24,000 bases of DNA from Oscillospiraceae bacterium (GTDB lineage: Bacteria > Bacillota > Clostridia > Oscillospirales > Oscillospiraceae): NCBI GenBank assembly GCA_022795735.1, contig JAAWHG010000007.1:49770-73769 (forward strand), in the 5' to 3' direction. The notes beneath the pieces were generated by a model. The model ran no database searches. It saw nothing but the letters and a program-made list of their open reading frames with translations, and was not told the DNA's origin. Positions 1 to 16,895 of this stretch are shown here, one piece after another. A program made the translations under genes and the position numbers. Positions within the stretch are counted from its first letter, which is position 1; every line of letters begins with the position of its first letter.

Positions 1-1694
1 TTGGCATCCTGGTTCTTCGTAATGCTGAAATGCTTGCTGCCACTGTAATTTGTTTCGGCACGAACCGTAACGTCCTCGCAGATGTCAACCATTTTCAGGG
101 TTGCAGCACCCTTGCTGTCAACGTCGATGTCCCAACGGTTGCCGTCAATGCGGACGTAGCGGTCGCTGCTGACGCTGACACGATAGAAGCTGTCGCCATA
201 GTTGATGTGCAGCCGGCGAATCTCATACTTGTCTTTGGTTGGTGTATAAGTAATAGCCAGATCGTCGCCATCATCGACGGAGTACTTGCTGGACTTGTAA
301 TTTACGCCGTTATCGCCTTTGACAGTAACGGTATGCTCGGAATCGTAGCTGTTGACAGAGAAAGACATATTTTCATTTACGCTGTTGACCACAATGCGGA
401 TGTAGTCATCGTCCACATCATAAACACGAATGTTGTCATACAGGTAGTCATCGGAATAACGCCCATCCCAACGGTAATAGAGATTGCCATTGCGGTCTGT
501 AAGAGCATCTTCGTCCAGATAGAAAGTACGGGAGGAATGAGACTGGGTTTCAATTGTGATAGAGCGAATCAGCGCATCACGTTTTGCCTCGAAATAGAAT
601 TCAAAACGGTCGCCGTCCGTTACAAAGTTTGCGCCTTCTTTATTACTGTAGACATCGTTGTCAGTATTTACTGCAACATAATGGATCTGATTGGAGGAGG
701 CGGCGGTGATGCTGACGTTGGCTTTGATTTCAGGAACAATCAGCGTGAGGCTGCCGTTCAGTTTCCGTTCCGCTTTGTAGGTATGACCGTTGACCTCAAC
801 AGAAGTATCGCTCATGGAAAGTACGGCCTTGCCGTCACCGTCCGCGATGTTCAGGTCTGTGATCATGTAATTGCTGTTGGGAGTAAATACAACTTTGCGG
901 GTTGCGCCAGAGGAAATGGTTTCGGTAACAACGTCGGCGGTGCAGTTGATGTCAGTATTCACAGTCAGATCAAACTTCTGGGTTTGATCTTTGGTCAGGG
1001 CAACGATGAAAAGGTTCCGGTTCAGAGAATCGGCGCTGACAGTAAAGGATCCGCCCTCGTCAGCGGTGATGTTCAGGGTCTGGTCAAGGATAGTGATGGC
1101 ACCGGGTTTGGCTTCCACCAGCCGGCCTTCTCCATCGGCGGCGTCAACGTGGATGTTGAAATGAGAGATTTCCTGACCGTTCTTAGGTGTGAAAGCCGCG
1201 CTGTACGCCTTGCCGCCAGCAACGGTGGTTTCGCCGGCCAGAACGTCGCAGGTGGCTGTGCCGCCGTAGTTGTTGTTCTGCCCATACGCGCCGCTTGCGG
1301 TATTTGTGGTATAGGTGACAGGCTTGGAAGCGACCTTGATCTGGATGTCATCGCTCAGAGTGTTGACATACTTGAAATGAAGGGTGCGAAGGCCGATGGC
1401 GTCAGTGTTCTTGTAAATCTGATAGCGGGTGCCGTTGGTCAACGTTTTGTCGATTGTCCTGCTGAAGTCGGCGTATGTATCCTCGATTTGACCGTCGCCC
1501 ACTGTCACCGTGTCAACGTCAGTCGCGCCGACAGTATGCAGTACAATATCGGGCGTATTGACGAGGATGGTATTCGTGCCATCGGCGAATGTGACGTTCA
1601 CCTGGCCGGACGCCGCGAACGCGGGGAGCGTCAGGGTGAGCATCAGGGCGAGAACTACCAGAAGATACATTGTTTTTTGCAGATTTTTCTTCAT
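1..1694 (-). CDS. Secreted or cell-surface protein, first ~564 codons (3' end lies beyond the window start)
   Basis: ATG at 1694 with a GGAGGA RBS (rc of 1702-1707). The N-terminus MKKNLQKTMYLLVVLALMLTLTLPAFA/ASG is a classic signal peptide. I checked codon by codon that this minus frame has no TAA/TAG/TGA down to base 3. It is missing from the ORF track because it runs off the window. Composition is beta-rich (T/V/D/N/G); no family recognised. Confidence 0.85.
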   Translation of the reverse strand, partial: MKKNLQKTMYLLVVLALMLTLTLPAFAASGQVNVTFADGTNTILVNTPDIVLHTVGATDVDTVTVGDGQIEDTYADFSRTIDKTLTNGTRYQIYKNTDAIGLRTLHFKYVNTLSDDIQIKVASKPVTYTTNTASGAYGQNNNYGGTATCDVLAGETTVAGGKAYSAAFTPKNGQEISHFNIHVDAADGEGRLVEAKPGAITILDQTLNITADEGGSFTVSADSLNRNLFIVALTKDQTQKFDLTVNTDINCTADVVTETISSGATRKVVFTPNSNYMITDLNIADGDGKAVLSMSDTSVEVNGHTYKAERKLNGSLTLIVPEIKANVSITAASSNQIHYVAVNTDNDVYSNKEGANFVTDGDRFEFYFEAKRDALIRSITIETQSHSSRTFYLDEDALTDRNGNLYYRWDGRYSDDYLYDNIRVYDVDDDYIRIVVNSVNENMSFSVNSYDSEHTVTVKGDNGVNYKSSKYSVDDGDDLAITYTPTKDKYEIRRLHINYGDSFYRVSVSSDRYVRIDGNRWDIDVDSKGAATLKMVDICEDVTVRAETNYSGSKHFSITKNQDA

Positions 1695-1721
1695 TTTTCA
1701 GTCCTCCTAACAATTTTTGAA

Positions 1722-1744
1722 AATATTGAGGGAAACCCTCAATT
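1722..1744. promoter_or_regulatory. Operator-like palindrome AATATTGAGGG-aaa-CCCTCAATT
   Basis: Perfect 8-bp inverted repeat ATTGAGGG/CCCTCAAT with a 3-nt spacer. It lies 30-50 bp upstream of the minus-strand secreted-protein start, inside the divergent intergenic region. Confidence 0.4.
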
Positions 1745-1790
1745 TAGATGAACCTATGGAAAATTGAAAAATAATATTAGCCGATGGTCT

Positions 1791-1899: not shown

Positions 1900-2172
1900 A
1901 TGCAAACATTTCTGGAAGTGAAGGGAAAGATATTTCCTACAAGTGGAATTTTGAAACAGCTTGATATTGAAGACAAGGATCTTGAGGTTGAGCTGTGTAG
2001 ACGGGCGGCTTTGGGTGTGATCGGGGAGAACGCTTCGCCGGATTTCAATTGCCCTGCGATCAATTTGGATTCTCTGTCAAATGACAACGTTGTCCCCACA
2101 GACATCTCCGCTACGGAACAGGCGAGGGAAGATTCGTTTGTGAAAATCGAAAAGGCGGCGAGATTGGCATGA
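1900..2172 (+). CDS. Hypothetical protein, cassette gene A1 (paralog of 3314-3736)
   Basis: GGAGGA RBS at 1889-1894, then ATG at 1900 (internal to track ORF 1795-2172). MQTFLEVKGK...ASPDFNCPAINLD aligns with MKTYLEINGK...ASPDPHCPAMYLD of A2. The stop overlaps the next start (ATGA at 2169-2172). Confidence 0.75.
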   Translation: MQTFLEVKGKIFPTSGILKQLDIEDKDLEVELCRRAALGVIGENASPDFNCPAINLDSLSNDNVVPTDISATEQAREDSFVKIEKAARLA

Positions 2173-2465
2173 AAAGATGGTATACAGTTACATTTAACGC
2201 AAAGCTGGATGGGGAAGATGTTTGTGATATGAAAAACGCATTCTATCTGATGATGGCCCAGGAAATGCTCATCCAGGAATGTACAAACTTACAGATAAAA
2301 GCGGAAGATCCCAACACGCAGGAAATGAAGAGATGGTATGTAGTTTCCTTTGGTGCAAAAATGGATGAAGATGATCTTCGGGCTATGCAAAGCTGCTTTT
2401 ATCTGGCGATGGAAAAGACATTGTTCATCAAAGAATGCACAGAGCTTCAAATTAAGGCAATTTGA
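2169..2465 (+). CDS. Hypothetical tandem-repeat protein, cassette gene B1 (2 x ~45-aa module)
   Basis: MKRWYTVTFNAKLDGEDVCDMKNAFYLMMAQEMLIQECTNLQIKAE is repeated as MKRWYVVSFGAKMDEDDLRAMQSCFYLAMEKTLFIKECTELQIKA, with a period of 156 nt (W codons at 2178 and 2334). The same module occurs twice in B2 (4115-4408). Confidence 0.8.
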   Translation: MKRWYTVTFNAKLDGEDVCDMKNAFYLMMAQEMLIQECTNLQIKAEDPNTQEMKRWYVVSFGAKMDEDDLRAMQSCFYLAMEKTLFIKECTELQIKAI

Positions 2466-2478
2466 CTTTTGGACTCTA

Positions 2479-2508
2479 CGCCCCTTCCTGTTCTTGTAGG
2501 AAGGGGCG
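2479..2508 (+). terminator. Hairpin after B1 (10-bp GC-rich stem, weak T tail)
   Basis: cgccccttcc (2479-2488) pairs with ggaaggggcg (2499-2508) around a 10-nt loop. There is no strong U-tract, so termination efficiency is uncertain. Confidence 0.45.
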
Positions 2509-2516
2509 CTTCAAAG

Positions 2517-2545
2517 GTAATATGTAATATTTTATTTCGTATATT
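2517..2545 (+). promoter_or_regulatory. Promoter P7 (GTAATA-N17-TATATT), degenerate family member
   Basis: -35-like GTAATA at 2517-2522, 17-nt spacer ending in tttCG, -10 TATATT at 2540-2545. It sits between the hairpin and the dNMP kinase gene. Confidence 0.35.
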
Positions 2546-2623
2546 TCATTAGATTTCAAAAATGCTGTCAAAAACAGGAAAAGCTTTCGTTAAACGGAGC
2601 TGCGAAAATGGAGGTTTTACAAA

Positions 2624-3235
2624 ATGGAAATTGTATTTATTTCAGGAAAAGCCCAGCACGGAAAGGATACCTGCGCATGTCATTTGCAGAACATCCTTTC
2701 AAAGCATGGGAAGAAAGTTCTCATTGCGCATTACGGAGATCTGCTGAAATACATATGCAGGCAATTTTTCGGCTGGAATGGGGAAAAGGATGAAGCCGGC
2801 AGAACGCTTCTTCAGTTTGTTGGGACAGAAGTGATTCGCCGCAAAGCCCCGGATTACTGGGTCAGCTTCCTCAAAGACATCCTCAGATTCTTCCCCGACG
2901 CCTGGGACTTCGTACTGATTCCAGATTGCCGTTTCCCAAACGAAGTGGACATGATTGAGGGGACGCATCTGAGAATCGTGCGGGAGGGATTTGAGTCGCC
3001 GCTGACCAAAGAGCAGCAGTCGCATGAATCGGAAGTTGCGCTGGATAATCACCCCTACGATCAATTGATCATTAACAATGGGACGCGGTTTGAACTCCGC
3101 AGCAAATGTGAAGCTCTGGCAATGTCATTGGGATGGATCCCCCAGAGCAAGTATTGTACCGATTTCAAGGATGTTCAAGACGAGTCCTTTTGTGAGAAGC
3201 ATTGCCTGGGGACAACGTGCGCATTGAAGAGGTAA
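2624..3235 (+). CDS. Deoxynucleoside monophosphate kinase-like P-loop protein (T4 gp1-like)
   Basis: The N-terminus MEIVFISGKAQHGKDT matches the remembered T4 gp1 pattern (IFLSG.K.SGKDT). The later blocks YWV..F, LIPDCRFPNEVD and THLRIVREG...HESE...LIINNG follow the same order as gp1 (IVPDTR...E.D, VIHVVRPG, H.TE, VITNDG). GGAGG RBS lies 9 nt upstream. Confidence 0.65.
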   Translation: MEIVFISGKAQHGKDTCACHLQNILSKHGKKVLIAHYGDLLKYICRQFFGWNGEKDEAGRTLLQFVGTEVIRRKAPDYWVSFLKDILRFFPDAWDFVLIPDCRFPNEVDMIEGTHLRIVREGFESPLTKEQQSHESEVALDNHPYDQLIINNGTRFELRSKCEALAMSLGWIPQSKYCTDFKDVQDESFCEKHCLGTTCALKR

Positions 3236-3313
3236 GCGTCTAATATTTTTCGCTTTATCCCCTAAAATCCATCAGCCAGATCGCAAGATTTTGAAACAAG
3301 GAGGAGTATAAAC

Positions 3314-3736
3314 ATGAAAACTTATCTGGAAATCAACGGGAAGAAAATCTCCATGGATGATCTTCTGAAAGAACTGGGCGTTGACGCCGAGCCATGCGAA
3401 GTAAATCTCTGTCAGGATACACCTTCCGGAACAATCCGGGCAAAAGCATCGCCGGATCCCCATTGCCCCGCAATGTATCTGGATTTTGTTCGCAAAGACG
3501 ACCCTGACACACTCCCTATCGATATCGCCAAGACCGAAGGTCCGGCCGGCTGTCCAGTTCGGACGTATCTGTTTGATCGGGAGTCATATCATTTTGCGTA
3601 CTCCGATATGGATACACGCCCTGACGCTGAGGTCGATAAGAAACTGATGTCGCCTGAACTGGTTGTGAGCGGAGAGCCTTACCTGGACACAATCGTCAAG
3701 CTGGAAGACGAGTTTGTGCGGGTTTATGACATGTAA
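3314..3736 (+). CDS. Hypothetical protein, cassette gene A2 (paralog of 1900-2172 with a C-terminal extension)
   Basis: AGGAGG RBS. The N-terminal ~75 aa align with A1; the extra ~60 aa at the C-terminus have no counterpart in A1. Confidence 0.8.
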   Translation: MKTYLEINGKKISMDDLLKELGVDAEPCEVNLCQDTPSGTIRAKASPDPHCPAMYLDFVRKDDPDTLPIDIAKTEGPAGCPVRTYLFDRESYHFAYSDMDTRPDAEVDKKLMSPELVVSGEPYLDTIVKLEDEFVRVYDM

Positions 3737-3781
3737 AACCGGAACATAGGAAAGGAGGCTTGCCAGCGTTCCCCATTCAAC

Positions 3782-3810
3782 GGGTGTTGGGTGGGGGAAG
3801 CGCTGGGGGG
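3782..3810 (+). other. G-run cluster (GGG-N4-GGG-N1-GGGGG-N7-GGGGGG), potential G-quadruplex
   Basis: Four G-runs at 3782-3784, 3789-3791, 3793-3797 and 3805-3810, ending 2 nt before the ATG at 3812. They cover the position where an RBS is expected. Confidence 0.35.
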
Positions 3811-3811
3811 T

Positions 3812-4432
3812 ATGGAAAAATGTACGAAGTGTGCAGTGTTTTTCGTGTGTAATGAGCAAGTAGAGTTGAAATGCAAGACGAAATGCAGAAAATGCTTGCT
3901 GCGGTTCCACTGTGATGTACAAACAGAATGCATCTGCAAAACAAATGAATTTTGCAAGTATATCAAAGACTATGGAAATCACGGGCATTGGGAACCGCTT
4001 TATGTTTGTTCATACTGCGGACAAACCTCAAAGGTGCAATTTTCTGAATGCCCATGCTGTAATACCAATATGGATGGATTCGACCAATATATATCTGAGG
4101 AGGAAACGAAGTTGAAAAAATGGTACACAATTACTTTTAGCGCCAAATTGGACGAAAATGATGTCCGCGCAATGGGTAGCTGCTTCTATGAAGCGATGGA
4201 GGAATCCATGCTCATCTCGGAATGCTCGAATTTGAAGATTGAGGCGGAACCGGGCAGTGAAAATGGCGGTTCCAAAACCTGGCGCACTGTCACTTTCAGC
4301 GCCAAACTGGACGAGGATGACATCTCCGCAATGCGTAGCTGCTTCTATGAAGCGATGAATGAGTCCATGCTGATTCAGGAGTGCACAGATCTGGAAATCA
4401 AGGAGGAAGAAAAAGATGAAAACAATGGATGA
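3812..4432 (+). CDS. Hypothetical protein, cassette gene B2: Cys-rich N-terminal region plus 2 x ~45-aa B module
   Basis: ATG at 3812 (MEKCTKC...), inside track ORF 3791-4432. The N-terminal 100 aa carry many CxxC pairs (CTKC, CRKC, CSYCG...CPCC). The C-terminal half holds two copies of the WYTITFSAKLDENDVRAMGSCFYEAMEESMLISECSNLKIEAE module. Confidence 0.75.
   Translation: MEKCTKCAVFFVCNEQVELKCKTKCRKCLLRFHCDVQTECICKTNEFCKYIKDYGNHGHWEPLYVCSYCGQTSKVQFSECPCCNTNMDGFDQYISEEETKLKKWYTITFSAKLDENDVRAMGSCFYEAMEESMLISECSNLKIEAEPGSENGGSKTWRTVTFSAKLDEDDISAMRSCFYEAMNESMLIQECTDLEIKEEEKDENNG
4115..4408 (+). repeat. In-frame tandem duplication (2 units, period 159 nt) inside B2
   Basis: Units start at 4115 and 4274. 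An exact 22-mer, tagctgcttctatgaagcgatg, occurs at 4177-4198 and again at 4336-4357. Confidence 0.9.
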
Positions 4433-4823
4433 CTTCAAGGAAATTATGAATGCGGTTCACATCAAAGAAGGGCCTTTCCAACTCAGCCGAGATTTCAATT
4501 GGATAAATTACTCTGGCATCCTGACCAAACTGATCCAGGAGGCCGGACGTTGGTGCAGAAGATATGCCAGCGATCTGTTTATTGACTGGGGGGTAATTGA
4601 CAGACAGATCAAGGATCGTACCATCCAGAGCGGAAGCTACCTTTTTGGTTTTCGTGAGGACGGCGTTGATGATAAACTCTACATTTTTCACAGATATGAT
4701 GCAGATAAATACTGCCAAACCTACCGTGCAATTTGGCGGCTGGACATAGTTGTGGATGACGCCGCCTATCCCAGCAGCGATATGGTTGCAGTGTCGCTTG
4801 ATTTGTACGAAGTCGGGAGATAG
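4416..4823 (+). CDS. Hypothetical protein
   Basis: AAGGAGGAAG RBS; the start overlaps the end of B2 by 17 nt; protein-like composition; no family recognised. Confidence 0.7.
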   Translation: MKTMDDFKEIMNAVHIKEGPFQLSRDFNWINYSGILTKLIQEAGRWCRRYASDLFIDWGVIDRQIKDRTIQSGSYLFGFREDGVDDKLYIFHRYDADKYCQTYRAIWRLDIVVDDAAYPSSDMVAVSLDLYEVGR

Positions 4824-4855
4824 GTCTGCGAAGTAAATTGGAGGAGAAATCAAAA

Positions 4856-5053
4856 ATGTATAATCAGGAATCATGGTTTGAAGCGCCGGAGGAGCGCATA
4901 TTTGGTTGCTGCGACTTCTGCGGCAATGAAATTTACGAGGGCGAACCCTACTACAGCATTGGCGGCAAGATGATTCATGGTGAGTGCCTGGGAGATTTTG
5001 CTGCAAGTCATTTTGCGGGCTGCTTGAAGGAGGCTGTCTGCGATGGCATGTAG
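4856..5053 (+). CDS. Small Cys/His-containing protein, possibly 3'-truncated by the IS
   Basis: GGAGGAG RBS at 4840-4846, ATG at 4856 (MYNQESWFEAPEERIFGCCDFCGNEIYEGEPYYSIGGKMIHGEC...). The TAG stop at 5051 lies right at the left end of the IS element, and no terminator precedes the IS. Confidence 0.65.
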   Translation: MYNQESWFEAPEERIFGCCDFCGNEIYEGEPYYSIGGKMIHGECLGDFAASHFAGCLKEAVCDGM

Positions 5054-5088
5054 TTTTTGCAATGTGTCTTATCACACGTGGCGTAATA

Positions 5089-5109
5089 CCCCTGCCTTCA
5101 GGCATGGGG
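5089..5109 (+). repeat. IS left-end subterminal hairpin (CCCCTGCC-ttca-GGCA[T]GGGG)
   Basis: Stem of 4+4 bp with bulged T5105 and a 4-nt loop. Same architecture as the right-end hairpin. Confidence 0.8.
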
Positions 5110-5180
5110 ATATAAGCCACACCTTGTTCCCCCGTAAAAGACTTCCGGGGATTGCATTAGATATCGTTGAATGGTATAAT

Positions 5181-5579
5181 ATGGCCATGGAATATAAAAG
5201 CAATCACAATGTGGTGTACTCTTGCAAGTATCATGTGGTTTGGTGTCCAAAATATCGCCGCAAGGTCTTGGTCAATGGTGTCGATGTGCGATTGAAGGAA
5301 CTCATAGAGGAAATCTGCGACGAATACCGCACCGACATCATAGAGATGGAAATCATGCCCGACCACATCCATTTGCTCATGGAGGTAGACCCTCAATTTG
5401 GAATACACAAAGCTGTGAAGCTGATTAAAGGACGAACTTCCCGTATTTTGAGACAAGAATATGGATGGCTGCGCTCAAGGCTCCCATCTTTGTGGACAAA
5501 TTCGTACTTTGTTTCCACTGTTGGCGGCGCACCTCTTTCAGTGATTAAGCAGTACATAGAGAATCAGAAGAATGTATGA
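5181..5579 (+). CDS. tnpA: IS200/IS605 Y1 (HUH) transposase TnpA
   Basis: MAMEYKSNHNVVYSCKYHVVWCPKYRRKVL..., HUH motif in MPDHIHLL, catalytic Tyr region WTNSYFVSTVGG, ~132 aa. ATG at 5181 is internal to track ORF 5043-5579; ATG at 5187 is an alternative start. Confidence 0.9.
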   Translation: MAMEYKSNHNVVYSCKYHVVWCPKYRRKVLVNGVDVRLKELIEEICDEYRTDIIEMEIMPDHIHLLMEVDPQFGIHKAVKLIKGRTSRILRQEYGWLRSRLPSLWTNSYFVSTVGGAPLSVIKQYIENQKNV

Positions 5580-5588
5580 GGTGCAGGG

Positions 5589-6701
5589 ATGGAATACAGC
5601 TATAAATTCCGCATCTATCCCAACATGGTGCAGGTACAGCAGATACAGAGGACATTTGGCTGCTGCCGGTTCGTCTGGAACCACTACCTTGCATTGCGAA
5701 AGGAAATCTATGAGCATGACGGGAAAACAATGAACTATAATGCCTGTTCCGAGGATATGACACAGCTTAAAAAAGTCCTTCCGTGGTTGAAAGAGGTAGA
5801 TGCAACCGCTCTGCAATCCTCTCTGCGTGATTTAGATACCGCCTATCAGAACTTCTTCCGGCGGGTGAAGCAAGGCCAGAAGCCCGGCTATCCCCGGTTC
5901 AAAAGCAAACACGACCACCAGAGAAGATACAAGAGTAAGTGCGTGGGCACGAATGTCAAAGTGCTGGATAAAGCTGTACAGCTTCCCAAACTCGGCCTTG
6001 TGAAATGCCAGGTCAGCAAAGAGGTAAAGGGCCGTATCCTGTCGGCAACCGTCGGCCAAAATCCATCCGGGAAATACTTTGTCTCGCTGTGCTGTACTGA
6101 TGTGGAGATAGAACCGCTGCCCTCCACCGGGGCGGTGGCCGGTATCGACATGGGCCTGAAAGCATTTGCTATTACCTCCGATGGTATTGAGTATCCTAAC
6201 CACAAGTACCTGGCCAAGAGGCAGAAGAAGCTTGCCAGGCTCCAGCGGCAGCTGTCCCGAAAATCAAAGGGCAGTAACCGTCGGGAAAAGGCGAGAATCC
6301 AAGTTGCCCGTCTCCATGAACACGTTACGAATCAGAGGGCGGATATGCTCCACAAGCTGTCCACTGGCCTTGTGCGAGACTATGACCTGATAGCCATTGA
6401 GGATTTAGCGCCGTCCAACATGGTGAAGAATCACAGTTTGGCTCGGTCTATCTCCGATGCTTCCTGGGGCGAGTTCCGTCGGCAGTTAGAGTACAAGGTG
6501 GCATGGTACGGAAAGCAGGTGGTCACGGTAGACCGCTTCTTCCCGTCCTCTCAGCTATGCTCCGCCTGCGGCGCTCAGTGGCCTGGAACAAAGGACTTGT
6601 CCGTGCGCGAATGGACTTGCCCAGTGTGCGGCGCTGTCCATGACCGGGATGTGAACGCCGCAAAGAACATCTTGAATGAAGGTCTGCGTCTGCTGGCGTA
6701 G
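5589..6701 (+). CDS. tnpB: TnpB (IS605 OrfB) RNA-guided RuvC endonuclease
   Basis: Typical N-terminus YKFRIYPN...Q; RuvC D in GIDMGLK; E in IAIEDL; zinc ribbon CSACG...CPVCG; Ruv[15 protein letters not shown]; 370 aa. Confidence 0.9.
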
Positions 6702-6846
6702 CCTACATATGGTACGGTGGGGCACACCGGAACCTATACGCTCGGGGACACCGTGTAAGACCTCGCTGGTGCAGGCTGTGGTGGTTGAGCCGAGAATCCC
6801 CCGGCTTTAGCCGTGGGGAGTGTCAATGCGCAAGCCGAAGACGAGA
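6670..6846 (+). ncRNA. Predicted TnpB omega (re)RNA scaffold plus ~20-nt guide. The 5' end is a guess.
   Basis: By analogy with characterised TnpB systems, the scaffold overlaps the tnpB 3' end and the right end (structured region 6700-6826). The guide is the flank immediately after TCAA: tgcgcaagccgaagacgaga (6827-6846). Confidence 0.45.
6798..6818 (+). repeat. IS right-end subterminal hairpin (CCCCCGGC-ttta-GCCG[T]GGGG)
   Basis: 4+4 bp stem with bulged T6814, preceded by GAAT (6794-6797) and followed by AGTGTCAA. Confidence 0.8.
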
Positions 6847-7126: not shown

Positions 7127-9076
<1,950 letters not shown>

Positions 9077-10730: not shown

Positions 10731-10895
10731 TTGAGTTATGATATTAGTTTGCAAAATTCAGTCACCGGAGAAACAATTCTTTTGGACAATCTTCATCTGA
10801 TGGCTGGAGGAACATTTGCCGCTGGCGGTACAAGAGAGGCATGACTGAATATCACTTATAACTATTCAAAGTGGTATTACAACCCGGCTTGTTGA
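10731..10895 (+). pseudogene. 5' fragment of a phage gene, with an in-frame TGA, truncated at the IscB element
   Basis: AAAGGAG RBS, then TTG at 10731. Reads (M)SYDISLQNSVTGETILLDNLHLMAGGTFAAGGTREA-[TGA 10842-10844]-LNITYNYSKWYYNPAC-TGA. The coding-like sequence continues through the internal stop and ends where the structured IscB upstream region begins. Confidence 0.55.
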
Positions 10896-11105
10896 ACTAT
10901 TCAATTCTTGATCAATTCAGCGGGTCGGATACCGACAATACTTGTCCATTTTGCCACCCGATCACGTATCGCGTGACATGACACTCCGGGATGCACTCCC
11001 AGTTCCGGACTCTGTAGCGTGAACAAGTAATCTGGGGAGACCTTACATAGACGGGTATCACATATCTGCCTGTGGTTTACTACATTTTTGAAAGGAGATG
11101 GCGAA
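10880..11105 (+). ncRNA. Predicted IscB omega RNA (guide plus ~200-nt scaffold). Ends are approximate.
   Basis: Characterised IscB systems encode the omega RNA directly upstream of iscB. This 210-nt non-coding stretch is rich in local hairpins (GTCGG-ata-CCGAC, TCACG-tatcg-CGTGA, GGGA-tgcac-TCCC nested inside CCGG...CCGG). The only ORF here (10901-11110, minus) looks spurious. Confidence 0.5.
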
Positions 11106-12554
11106 TACATGGTATATGTATTAAATCATGAAGGAAAACCTTTAATGCCCACGACACGCTATGGACACGTCCGCCGTCTTCTAAAGACGGGTCAGGCGAA
11201 AGTTAAATACGGCAACCCGTTTACCATCCAACTATGCTATAAAACCGAAGACAAAGTTCAGCCTGTTATTTTGGGCATTGATCCAGGTCGAACAAATATT
11301 GGGCTTTGCGCTGTTACCGACGATGGAACTGCTCTATTTGCAGCCAAAATCATCACCCGAAACAAAGACATTCCCAGACTCATGCGGAAACGCAAGCAAT
11401 TCCGCCAAAAGCACCGGCAAGTCAAGAGACGCTTGAAACGCCGCCGTCGTGCAAAAAAGAATAATACTATCTTGAAGACCGGCATTCTTCAACGACACCT
11501 AACGGGTTATAGTAAAGATAAATGCGTCACTGTACATGATATCAGAAACAAGCAATCTCGTTTCAGCAATCGCTGCCGCAGCCCAAATTGGCTGACTCCG
11601 ACAGCAAACCAATTACTGCAGACACATATCAATGCTGTCAACAAGATCAGTAAGTATCTCCCTGTTTCAGGCATATCTATTGAATTGAATAAGTTTGCCA
11701 TGATGAAATTGGATGATTCAACTATATTCGGGAAAGACTTTCAAAATGGACCACTGAAAGGATATGGTAAAGACATCCATCAAGCGGTTTCCGACATTCA
11801 AGATGGAAAATGCCTTCTCTGCGGCAAATCCATTGCTGAATACCATCATGTGCGAACACGCAGTAAAGACGGCAGCAATACCATTGGAAATCTTGTCGGC
11901 TTATGCCATGAATGCCATAAGAAAGTCCATACGGACGAATCTGTTAAACAACAGCTTGCCACTGTTAATTCCGGTTTCCGAACGAAATACGATGCTCTTG
12001 GCGTGTTAAACCAAATACTGCCTTATGTGATCAATATCCTCAGGAGAAAATATCCCTTACATATAACGACGGGATATGAAACTTCGCGTGTGAGAAAAAC
12101 AGCCAACCTGCTGAAAGACCATCATGTAGATGCGCATCTCATAGCAATCTCAGGGTTGAATGTAAAACGAATCATAACAATCGATCATTGTTATGCCATC
12201 AAACAATTCAGACGCCATGACAGGCAGGCATGTAAACGCGAAATGCTGAACCGGCGTTATTATCTTGGGAACCAACTGGTAGCGACAAACCGACATAAAG
12301 CCTTTGAACAAACCACGGATAGTCTGGCCGACTACATAACAAATGGAGGCAGAGCCGACCATTTGACTGTAAAGCATATAACGCGAGCCATGACGGACAA
12401 AAAACGTTTCATGCCGGGTTGTCAAGCCGGAAACAAAACTATATTAAAACGAGCTGAAGGCAATTATTGGTTTGACGATGGGTCAAAAACAACTTGTAAG
12501 AAAACATTAATAAATAAACGAAATGCCGGGCTTGTTTTTGTATCAAATTTGTAA
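10896..12554 (+). mobile_element. Non-autonomous IS200/IS605-superfamily IscB element (no tnpA). Boundaries are approximate.
   Basis: Omega-RNA region plus iscB, inserted into the gene at 10731. The right end was not identified; a TCAA at 12543-12546 inside the last iscB codons is a candidate. Confidence 0.5.
11109..12554 (+). CDS. iscB: IscB RNA-guided nuclease (PLMP, RuvC and HNH domains)
   Basis: MVYVLNHEGKPLMPT (PLMP domain). RuvC-I GIDPGRTNIG. Arg-rich bridge helix KRRLKRRRRAKK. RuvC-II ISIELNKF. HNH CLLCG...YHHV...GSNTIGNLVGLCHECHKKVH. RuvC-III DHHVDAHLIAI. 481 aa from the ATG at 11109. Confidence 0.88.
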   Translation: MVYVLNHEGKPLMPTTRYGHVRRLLKTGQAKVKYGNPFTIQLCYKTEDKVQPVILGIDPGRTNIGLCAVTDDGTALFAAKIITRNKDIPRLMRKRKQFRQKHRQVKRRLKRRRRAKKNNTILKTGILQRHLTGYSKDKCVTVHDIRNKQSRFSNRCRSPNWLTPTANQLLQTHINAVNKISKYLPVSGISIELNKFAMMKLDDSTIFGKDFQNGPLKGYGKDIHQAVSDIQDGKCLLCGKSIAEYHHVRTRSKDGSNTIGNLVGLCHECHKKVHTDESVKQQLATVNSGFRTKYDALGVLNQILPYVINILRRKYPLHITTGYETSRVRKTANLLKDHHVDAHLIAISGLNVKRIITIDHCYAIKQFRRHDRQACKREMLNRRYYLGNQLVATNRHKAFEQTTDSLADYITNGGRADHLTVKHITRAMTDKKRFMPGCQAGNKTILKRAEGNYWFDDGSKTTCKKTLINKRNAGLVFVSNL

Positions 12555-12576
12555 TTTTTATAAAGGAGGAATCACT

Positions 12577-13999: not shown

Positions 14000-14075
14000 C
14001 GAGGTGTAGCTCAGTTGGCAGAGCGCCTGCTTTGGGAGCAGGAGGCCCAGGGTTCGAGACCCTGCACTTCGACCA
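14000..14075 (+). tRNA. tRNA-Pro (anticodon UGG), CCA encoded
   Basis: Cloverleaf folded by hand. Acceptor CGAGGTG/CACTTCG (one G:U pair). D arm GCTC-AGTTGGCA-GAGC. Anticodon arm CCTGC-TTTGGGA-GCAGG (U33, UGG, G37). T arm CAGGG-TTCGAGA-CCCTG. Discriminator A, then CCA. Confidence 0.9.
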
Positions 14076-16157: not shown

Positions 16158-16175
16158 TTTAGGGAGGAAATGAAA

Positions 16176-16895
16176 ATGAAAAAGGAATATATCGACGCAT
16201 GTGAGAATCTTGGCTGGACGGTATATGAAGATGAGGACAGCTGGGTGGAGTTGTCAAGGCGCTCTCCGGCTGGAGAAGACTTCTATTTCAGTGTCAATAC
16301 GGAAGACTTTGTAGAGGAGATCAATGAATACGCAGCCAGCTTCGACGTGGATGAGCATGTCGAACAATGGATACCGAGTCGAGGGAAGAAAGGTGTTCCC
16401 TCCAGTATTCGTGAACTGTTGGAAGATGCTGAGGCTATAAAGAAAATGCTGAAAGAATTATCCGCTAAATTGACGGGGGAAGTGTATGAGGGCATTTGTC
16501 CAATTTGTGGCGTCCCCATTGAATATTACGACAATAAGCCAATTGATCGTGGCCATGTTTATTTTTGGACCTGTTCAAAATGCGGAACATCCGGCGAAGA
16601 GAAATGCAGTCATGTGTTCGACGGACATCACTACCGCGTTATTGACGGACATGGGAATCTGTTTTCATCTGAAGGTATCCGGTTTGGTGATGGAACTCCA
16701 ACTGCACCTAATCCACTGGATGAACACGAAGGAATTTGCCCGGTTTGTGGTGCATCTATTGAATACTCAGGTGACAGTGATCAGATTGGGGAATATGGAA
16801 GCCGCCATTGGGAATGTCTGAAATGTGGAGCCTCTGGCAATGAGGGATACAAGGAAGTGTTTGTTGAACATCATTTGACAGCCTATGTTCTTTAA
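16176..16895 (+). CDS. Hypothetical protein with two copies of a zinc-ribbon module
   Basis: GGAGG at 16163-16167 favours the ATG at 16176 over 16170. EGICPICGVPIEYYD...WTCSKCGTSGEE...VFDGHH is repeated as EGICPVCGASIEYSG...WECLKCGASGNE...VFVEHH. Confidence 0.75.
   Translation: MKKEYIDACENLGWTVYEDEDSWVELSRRSPAGEDFYFSVNTEDFVEEINEYAASFDVDEHVEQWIPSRGKKGVPSSIRELLEDAEAIKKMLKELSAKLTGEVYEGICPICGVPIEYYDNKPIDRGHVYFWTCSKCGTSGEEKCSHVFDGHHYRVIDGHGNLFSSEGIRFGDGTPTAPNPLDEHEGICPVCGASIEYSGDSDQIGEYGSRHWECLKCGASGNEGYKEVFVEHHLTAYVL

Follow-up and report, generated by a model that had tools for sequence, protein, structure and literature searches.

Two diverged copies of an acidic gene pair around a phage deoxynucleoside monophosphate kinase gene, and a new unannotated family of 46-residue modules

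Two gene pairs, A1-B1 and A2-B2, flank a deoxynucleoside monophosphate (dNMP) kinase gene in a stretch of DNA of 24,000 nt (the window) on contig JAAWHG010000007.1 of an Oscillospiraceae bacterium; all coordinates below are window positions unless another contig is named. The locus is part of an uncultured phage binned with the metagenome-assembled genome of that bacterium. We found that the B proteins belong to a new, unannotated family of modules with a common fold, and that the A proteins are ORFans restricted to one clade. As an earlier note made from the sequence alone (the original prediction) had claimed, the two pairs are diverged copies of the same gene pair. A conserved two-gene A-B system is only weakly supported by our results.

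The first gene, A1 (1900-2172, + strand), encodes 90 residues with an isoelectric point (pI) of 4.5 and is the short paralog of A2. It starts with the ATG at 1900, preceded by the ribosome-binding site GGAGG at 1888-1892, and its product is deposited at NCBI as a hypothetical protein (MCI8843225.1). B1 (2169-2465, + strand; 98 residues) consists of two tandem 46-residue modules, each predicted to be beta-alpha-beta, and its ATG overlaps the stop codon of A1 (ATGA), as had been noticed before. The Shine-Dalgarno sequence of B1 is weak, and its translation is therefore probably coupled to that of A1. Then follows the kinase gene (2624-3235, + strand; 203 residues), which matches PHROG 139 (E=3e-34) and Pfam PF21448 (DNMK; E=2e-10) and whose product is 31-34% identical to annotated phage dNMP kinases (tblastn). 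On its other side lie A2 (3314-3736, + strand; 140 residues, pI 4.4), the long copy, which is called ancestral here and has orthologs in sister phages, and B2 (3812-4432, + strand; 206 residues), composed of an N-terminal Cys-rich domain and two C-terminal modules. The positions and open reading frames (ORFs) of the four genes agreed with those in the original prediction, and so did the small, acidic character of their products, all of which have a pI of 4.4-4.8.

The similarity between the two pairs was clear in proper alignments. A1 and A2 are 40% identical over 75 residues (BLASTP, E=3e-17), and B1 and the C-terminal half of B2 are 53% identical over 98 residues (E=2e-35). The nucleotide identity among the module copies was 59-67%, close to the value of about 65% that had been estimated by eye. 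A1 aligns with residues 1-78 of A2 and, tentatively, with the last ~10 residues of A2, while ~52 internal residues of A2 are missing from A1. Thus, from the alignment, the short pair looks like the long pair minus the C-terminal half of A, the intergenic spacer and the Cys-rich domain of B. A and B are unrelated to one another (hhalign probability 0.1%).

In order to describe the divergence, we calculated the proportions of synonymous (pS) and nonsynonymous (pN) differences. Between the modules of B1 and those of B2 the synonymous sites are saturated (pS 0.80-1.05; pN ~0.26-0.28), and the N-terminal domains of A1 and A2 gave a pS of 0.63 and a pN of 0.36. Judging from this saturation, the divergence of A1-B1 from A2-B2 is old. 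A1 and B1 have remained intact despite it, which would therefore imply selection on these ORFs. The ratio of nonsynonymous to synonymous substitution rates (dN/dS) was 0.20 for A2, 0.09-0.13 for the C-terminal half of B2 and 0.11-0.15 for the Cys-rich domain of B2, the last value indicating purifying selection; that of the kinase was 0.13 against L010. L010 is, together with L009, the nearest diverged relative of the window phage (~81-86% nucleotide identity in the flanks and 74% amino acid identity in A2). Population variants of A1-B1 showed single-residue differences only.

The original prediction had described one shared module of ~45 residues in B1 and B2. The sharing was confirmed, and the single copy was not: each B protein holds the module twice, giving four copies in all, at 2169-2306 and 2325-2462 in B1 and at 4112-4249 (B2a) and 4271-4408 (B2b) in B2 (all + strand, 46 residues each, in tandem). 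The C-terminal half of B2 (4112-4432, + strand) comprises these two modules and an acidic tail. When the modules of different phages were compared, B2a and B2b clustered by position. That is, the identity was 76-83% between modules at the same position and 63-67% between modules at different positions, and the grouping was weaker with the more distant phage L023 (70-72% and 63-70%, respectively). From this grouping it therefore appears that the tandem arrangement in B2 arose before the window phage and L010 diverged.

We then compared the window with its relatives. A blastn comparison aligned the window collinearly with L010 in two blocks, 361-1786 and 2621-5072, and A1-B1 lies in the gap that separates them. 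The segment 1787-2620 (+ strand with respect to the cassette) is 834 nt long in the window and 68 nt in L010, and it lies between the upstream region of a gene for an S-layer-homology (SLH) protein and the start of the kinase. The order in L010 is the SLH gene (minus strand), the kinase, A2, B2 and an ORF of 135 residues, without A1-B1. Thus, the SLH gene is followed directly by the kinase there, and the idea that the bracketing of the kinase is ancestral was not borne out. A1-B1 is confined to one phage species, which is common (A1 was found on 140 contigs) and nearly invariant. A2-B2 is syntenic in the sister phages, and orthologs of A2 were found in P0003 and P0004 at 74-75% identity and in L023 at 55%. 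These results indicate that A2-B2 is the resident pair and that A1-B1 is a compact add-on operon with its own ribosome-binding site, its ATGA overlap and a terminator-like hairpin. The hairpin is GC-rich and lies directly 3' of the B1 stop codon (2465-2518, + strand). Its predicted RNA fold has an energy of -31.2 kcal/mol (z=-6.1), which was equalled by 0 of 200 shuffled sequences; it is without a clean T-run and was not picked up by a consensus terminator scan.

As to the origin of A1-B1, the original prediction had proposed an old duplication after which both pairs were kept. Its age stands, as described above, whereas duplication in place was not supported. The modules of B1 are equidistant from every module of B2 (50-57% identity), B2a is nearer to a module of an unrelated family member (70% to that of P0008) than to those of B1 (54-57%), and the GC content of the inserted segment is 41.5% as against 45-50% in the adjoining genes. 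Therefore, A1-B1 could be an old in-lineage duplicate that was lost from the sister phages, or it could have been imported from a distant phage possessing an A-B pair, and both origins seem equally possible.

Such a self-contained unit, with its own ribosome-binding site and terminator-like hairpin, with two overlapping genes, with a GC content below that of its neighbours and with presence in one phage and absence in its close relatives, might be a moron-type cassette. That is, it would benefit the host or the lysogen, for example by superinfection exclusion or as a toxin-antitoxin-like pair, and would not serve phage takeover. We consider this very improbable. Both products are acidic, and none of the defence, toxin and antitoxin models in PADLOC, Pfam and NCBIfam matched A1, A2, B1, B2 or the two ORFs downstream. 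No convincing promoter, and in particular no sigma-70-like sequence, was found upstream of A1 on the + strand in a promoter scan; no integrase or lysogeny module was seen in the window, and the homologous long pair is embedded in a string of DNA-metabolism genes.

The Cys-rich domain is the part of B2 that public annotation omits. It occupies 3812-4111 (+ strand; residues 1-100, ~100 residues) and has 15 Cys residues with several CxxC pairs, a composition with which it would probably bind zinc. The public calls for B2 begin at an internal TTG (106 residues, MCI8843228.1) or at an internal ATG (120 residues). The orthologs P0076 and P0077, as well as L010, keep the full ORF of 205-206 residues, and their Cys-rich domains are 64-72% identical to that of B2. 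In L009 a frameshift splits the ORF into parts of 86 and 120 residues. The annotation of B2 (106 residues) should be corrected to 206 residues including the Cys-rich N-terminal domain.

To clarify the distribution of the module, we used its four copies as the query of an exhaustive profile search. It yielded 72 cluster representatives at E<=1e-3, and 28 of these reached E<=1e-10. The consensus is xKKWYxVTFxAxLxEDDxRAMxKCFYxAMxExMxIxxCxxLxIxxE, usually followed by an acidic tail, and the modules start with M-K-[KR]-W-Y. Most members have a single module, either as stand-alone proteins of 45-75 residues or fused at the N or C side to varied small domains, several of which are Zn-ribbon-like; tandem versions are a minority. 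The near-invariant columns are F9, A11, D17, A20, M21, F25, I35 and L41. These appear to form a hydrophobic core together with one Asp capping the start of a helix, and nothing in them suggests catalysis. On this basis the module may be read as a self-pairing scaffold or dimerisation handle.

Neither family had been recognised in the original prediction, and database searches gave the same answer. Searches of Pfam, PHROGs, NCBIfam and PADLOC with A1, A2, B1 and B2 returned only noise, a profile of 46 modules had no match below E=0.1 among PDB sequences, and Pfam identified none of the partner domains in 40 multidomain members of the family. The whole window had no match among GenBank phages by megablast, nor did the module, A2 and B2 by tblastn. 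No copy of the module was found in PLSDB plasmids or, by a pattern scan, in GTDB species genomes. Elsewhere, the B-module genes stand in same-strand runs of small acidic ORFs on large viral contigs of 25-233 kb.

In these runs, a small domain may be part of a B-module protein in one phage and the product of its own adjoining gene in another (compare L049 7293-7526 with L041 8001-8396, and L050 7367-7642 with 7668-8141). Domain shuffling thus seems to be active in these accessory gene runs, which is typical of conflict-related accessory proteins, although this indication is circumstantial.

The fold of B was examined with an AlphaFold2 (AF2) model of B2. The model showed the order beta-alpha-beta-beta-alpha-beta over residues 103-198, with a per-residue confidence (pLDDT) of 60-83; the strands were at 103-113, 138-145, 156-166 and 191-198 and the helices at 115-130 and 168-183. 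The Cys-rich domain had a pLDDT below 50. Foldseek searches of PDB and BFVD with the B2 model returned generic ferredoxin-like proteins only, namely dimeric alpha/beta barrels, IsdG-like proteins and ribosomal protein S6. The top PDB matches (2od6, 1sqe, 4zos and S6 chains) covered ~100 columns with a probability of ~1.0, an E value of only ~1e-2, a TM-score of 0.4-0.6 and an identity of 8-19%. According to the model, the two tandem modules would make one ferredoxin-like alpha+beta sandwich from two homologous halves. Single-module proteins presumably homodimerise, because a module would need to pair for folding.

The modelled B2 thus resembles the ferredoxin-like proteins, the Dabb/IsdG-like proteins and S6, in having the same order of elements within ~90-100 residues. 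However, B is not a member of the Dabb, ABM, IsdG or S6 families at the level of sequence (Pfam and NCBIfam gave nothing above noise, and the profile search of PDB was negative), and it has no evident heme, monooxygenase or RNA-binding residues. B also differs from these proteins in that its fold is built of two clearly homologous 46-residue halves, which exist as single-module proteins as well. B was also compared with the 4-oxalocrotonate tautomerase family, in which a beta-alpha-beta unit of ~50-60 residues pairs for a stable fold and both tandem-fused and single versions exist. We rejected membership of that family: the catalytic Pro1 is absent, since the modules start with MK[KR]WY, no Pfam Tautomerase match was obtained, and the family was not among the top Foldseek matches. 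For the N-terminus of A, whose start M-x-T-[FY]-L-E-[VI]-x-G-K had prompted the comparison, a ThiS/MoaD ubiquitin-like fold was likewise rejected. A1 and A2 had no Pfam match at E<=1, and their C-termini (...ARLA and ...VYDM) are not Gly-Gly.

What A and B might do can be considered from these results as follows. We tentatively suppose that they are acidic binding proteins that pair with themselves, have no enzymatic activity and serve host takeover or anti-defence, A being a partner peculiar to this lineage; this reading is possible but falls short of probable. In that case the module would present variable acidic surfaces, tails or partner domains. A and B would be made together and would bind a host protein stoichiometrically, and this protein, plausibly a nucleic-acid-binding or defence enzyme, would be neutralised or redirected. 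With the other, diverged pair the phage would gain a further specificity. A bolder form of the proposal is that the 46-residue module is a new 'half-ferredoxin' self-pairing domain, which would serve as the chassis of small acidic host-protein inhibitors in uncultured phages, and that A and B make a two-component anti-defence or takeover complex with two diverged specificities. This form seems rather unlikely to us.

The linkage of A and B bears directly on such a complex. B adjoins A in every genome that has A, and the order A-then-B is retained in both pairs (n=2). The A-bearing relatives, however, are wholly syntenic over the region, and therefore the adjacency of A and B in them says little. 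Several other results weigh against the proposed binding complex. The linkage was observed independently no more than twice, in A1-B1 and in the clade that carries A2-B2. In L023 an additional gene of 130 residues stands between A and B. None of the 31 other B-module loci (from IMG/VR and metagenome contigs, with flanks of 6-8 kb) had an A-like ORF. No A-B fusion was detected, since a search with the A profile against all multidomain proteins of the B family and against their recurrent C-terminal partner domain gave nothing significant. B2 is followed, with overlap, by the ORF of 135 residues in all three phage lineages; in the window this ORF (4416-4823, + strand) starts 17 nt before the end of B2, and it had no family match in Pfam, PHROGs, NCBIfam or PADLOC. 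The AF2 model of A2 had a pLDDT of 33 and was unusable, and the structural matches of B are weak and generic, as described above. Many phage ORFans are small and acidic, and these traits alone are no sign of inhibition.

Besides the two copies in the window, A-like genes turned up in L009/L010 and L023 only; IMG/VR yielded no member of the A family, and A2 was not found in GTDB species genomes. Because A is limited to one lineage and none of the 31 loci elsewhere has it, the general claim of A-B pairing is not supported, and the 'conserved pairing' of the original prediction could not be upheld as a general property. The same results fit the possibility that A and B are independent accessory genes, whose neighbourhood was copied once, either through a segmental duplication or because a homologous segment was taken up from another phage, and was then trimmed by deletions, so that the pairing is historical and not functional. 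All 31 other B loci are without an A-like neighbour, A is limited to one phage group in which the region is wholly syntenic, a gene of 130 residues is tolerated between A and B in L023, and B2 is linked to the ORF of 135 residues at least as tightly as to A2. Moreover, the other indels of the window relative to L010, an IS605 unit and an HNH gene described below, show that this region gains and loses genes readily. On the other hand, the order A-then-B has survived saturating synonymous divergence in both pairs, and the deletions removed all that lay between the N-terminal domain of A and the modules of B, leaving A1 and B1 as an operon coupled by ATGA, as if co-expression had been selected for. 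Weighing both sides, we regard independent neighbours as the main rival, which is about as likely as the binding proteins proposed above, though not probable.

The surrounding genes suggested another possibility, namely that A and B serve phage nucleotide metabolism as accessory or regulatory subunits, which would tether or regulate the kinase in a dNTP-synthesis complex or act as an ACT-like sensor of a small ligand. The neighbourhood is one of nucleotide and DNA metabolism: the pairs flank the kinase, NrdD and NrdG are encoded upstream in related contigs, and the DNA ligase LigA is encoded downstream. At nine other loci a protein of ~431-440 residues, whose sequence, though no family match, suggests a putative ATP-dependent DNA ligase, is encoded 1-2.5 kb from the B-module gene. 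ACT-type regulatory domains, too, have the beta-alpha-beta-beta-alpha-beta fold. However, when we looked for the kinase as a frequent neighbour, it was absent within 6-8 kb of the module at all 31 other loci (0/31), and the sister phages keep the kinase without A1-B1. No ACT or other ligand-binding family was detected by sequence or by fold, conserved polar pocket residues are lacking, and the fusion partners of the module are small unknown domains, not enzymes. We therefore think that a role of this kind is improbable.

Returning to A and B as acidic binding proteins, we compared them with known systems. Ocr, ArdA, Arn, Ugi, p56 and the acidic anti-CRISPRs are small acidic inhibitors and DNA mimics of phages and plasmids. 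A and B are like them in size, acidity, apparent non-enzymatic nature, phage origin, probable oligomerisation and variable presence, but they match none of them in sequence or fold, so that the likeness is one of category only. Among the candidates tried, the anti-defence families of the Ocr, ArdA, KlcA and DarA types gave only sub-threshold noise in Pfam and PHROGs (DarA_C, 17.6 bits against a cut-off of 27) and no fold match in PDB or BFVD. A search of the literature for comparable ferredoxin-like acidic phage inhibitors found nothing relevant.

The B module also resembles the 'LPD' domains associated with polyvalent proteins in that a wide range of small domains accompany it, fused to one end or the other or encoded by an adjoining gene, and at one locus it lies near a methylase, a GmrSD-like nuclease and LPD18. 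The B proteins differ from the polyvalent proteins in being short (45-250 residues) and not giant, and the module matches no LPD or other Pfam family. At the locus in question (L052 5055-10209, on a viral contig of 146 kb), a tandem B-module gene of 91 residues follows genes for an EcoRI-like adenine methylase and a GmrSD_N+HNH nuclease and precedes one for an LPD18-domain protein. From these genes the neighbourhood appears anti-restriction-like. It fits the reading of A and B as binding proteins, and against that reading stands that it was seen at one locus only.

Several other features of the window were observed. The SLH gene (1-1751, minus strand, extending past the start of the window) is divergent from A1 and encodes a phage-borne protein of 885 residues with SLH domains; it is an unusual phage cargo and hints at a host with an S-layer or an SLH-anchoring cell wall. 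Similar G-rich motifs are present upstream of A1 (1797-1817, GGGGGCGCTGGGGAGGG) and directly upstream of B2 (3785-3811, GGGGGAAGCGCTGGGGGG), with a similarity that is not statistically significant. The ORF of 135 residues is followed by a Zn-ribbon-like ORF of 65-71 residues (4838-5053; PHROG 4331, E=1.5e-9), and both are syntenic with B2.

At 5073-6826, where L010 has 113 nt, the window contains an IS200/IS605-type unit with the Y1 transposase TnpA inside the ORF at 5043-5579 and TnpB at 5589-6701. This unit interrupts a Zn-ribbon ORF of ~71 residues that is intact in L009/L010. A further indel of 1.68 kb (10883-12562; 332 nt in L010) holds a gene for an RRXRR/HNH endonuclease (11088-12554), which behaves as a mobile, homing-type gene. 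The sole Rfam or ARAGORN match within the window is a tRNA-Pro (14000-14075, anticodon TGG). An ORF of 241 residues at 16170-16895 has two copies of a CxxC...CxxC zinc-ribbon unit of ~50 residues (GICPxCG...C.KCG..G) and is another case of internal duplication within a small accessory protein.

In conclusion, the B-module family, with its 72 clusters and without a database model, could enter the databases as a new domain of unknown function. In other respects A and B are typical phage dark matter, accessory genes and not a demonstrated system. If they are indeed binding proteins or inhibitors, uncultured phages would have in the B module a compact and recombinable scaffold for many small effectors, and the A/B pairs would be an entry point to their host targets.

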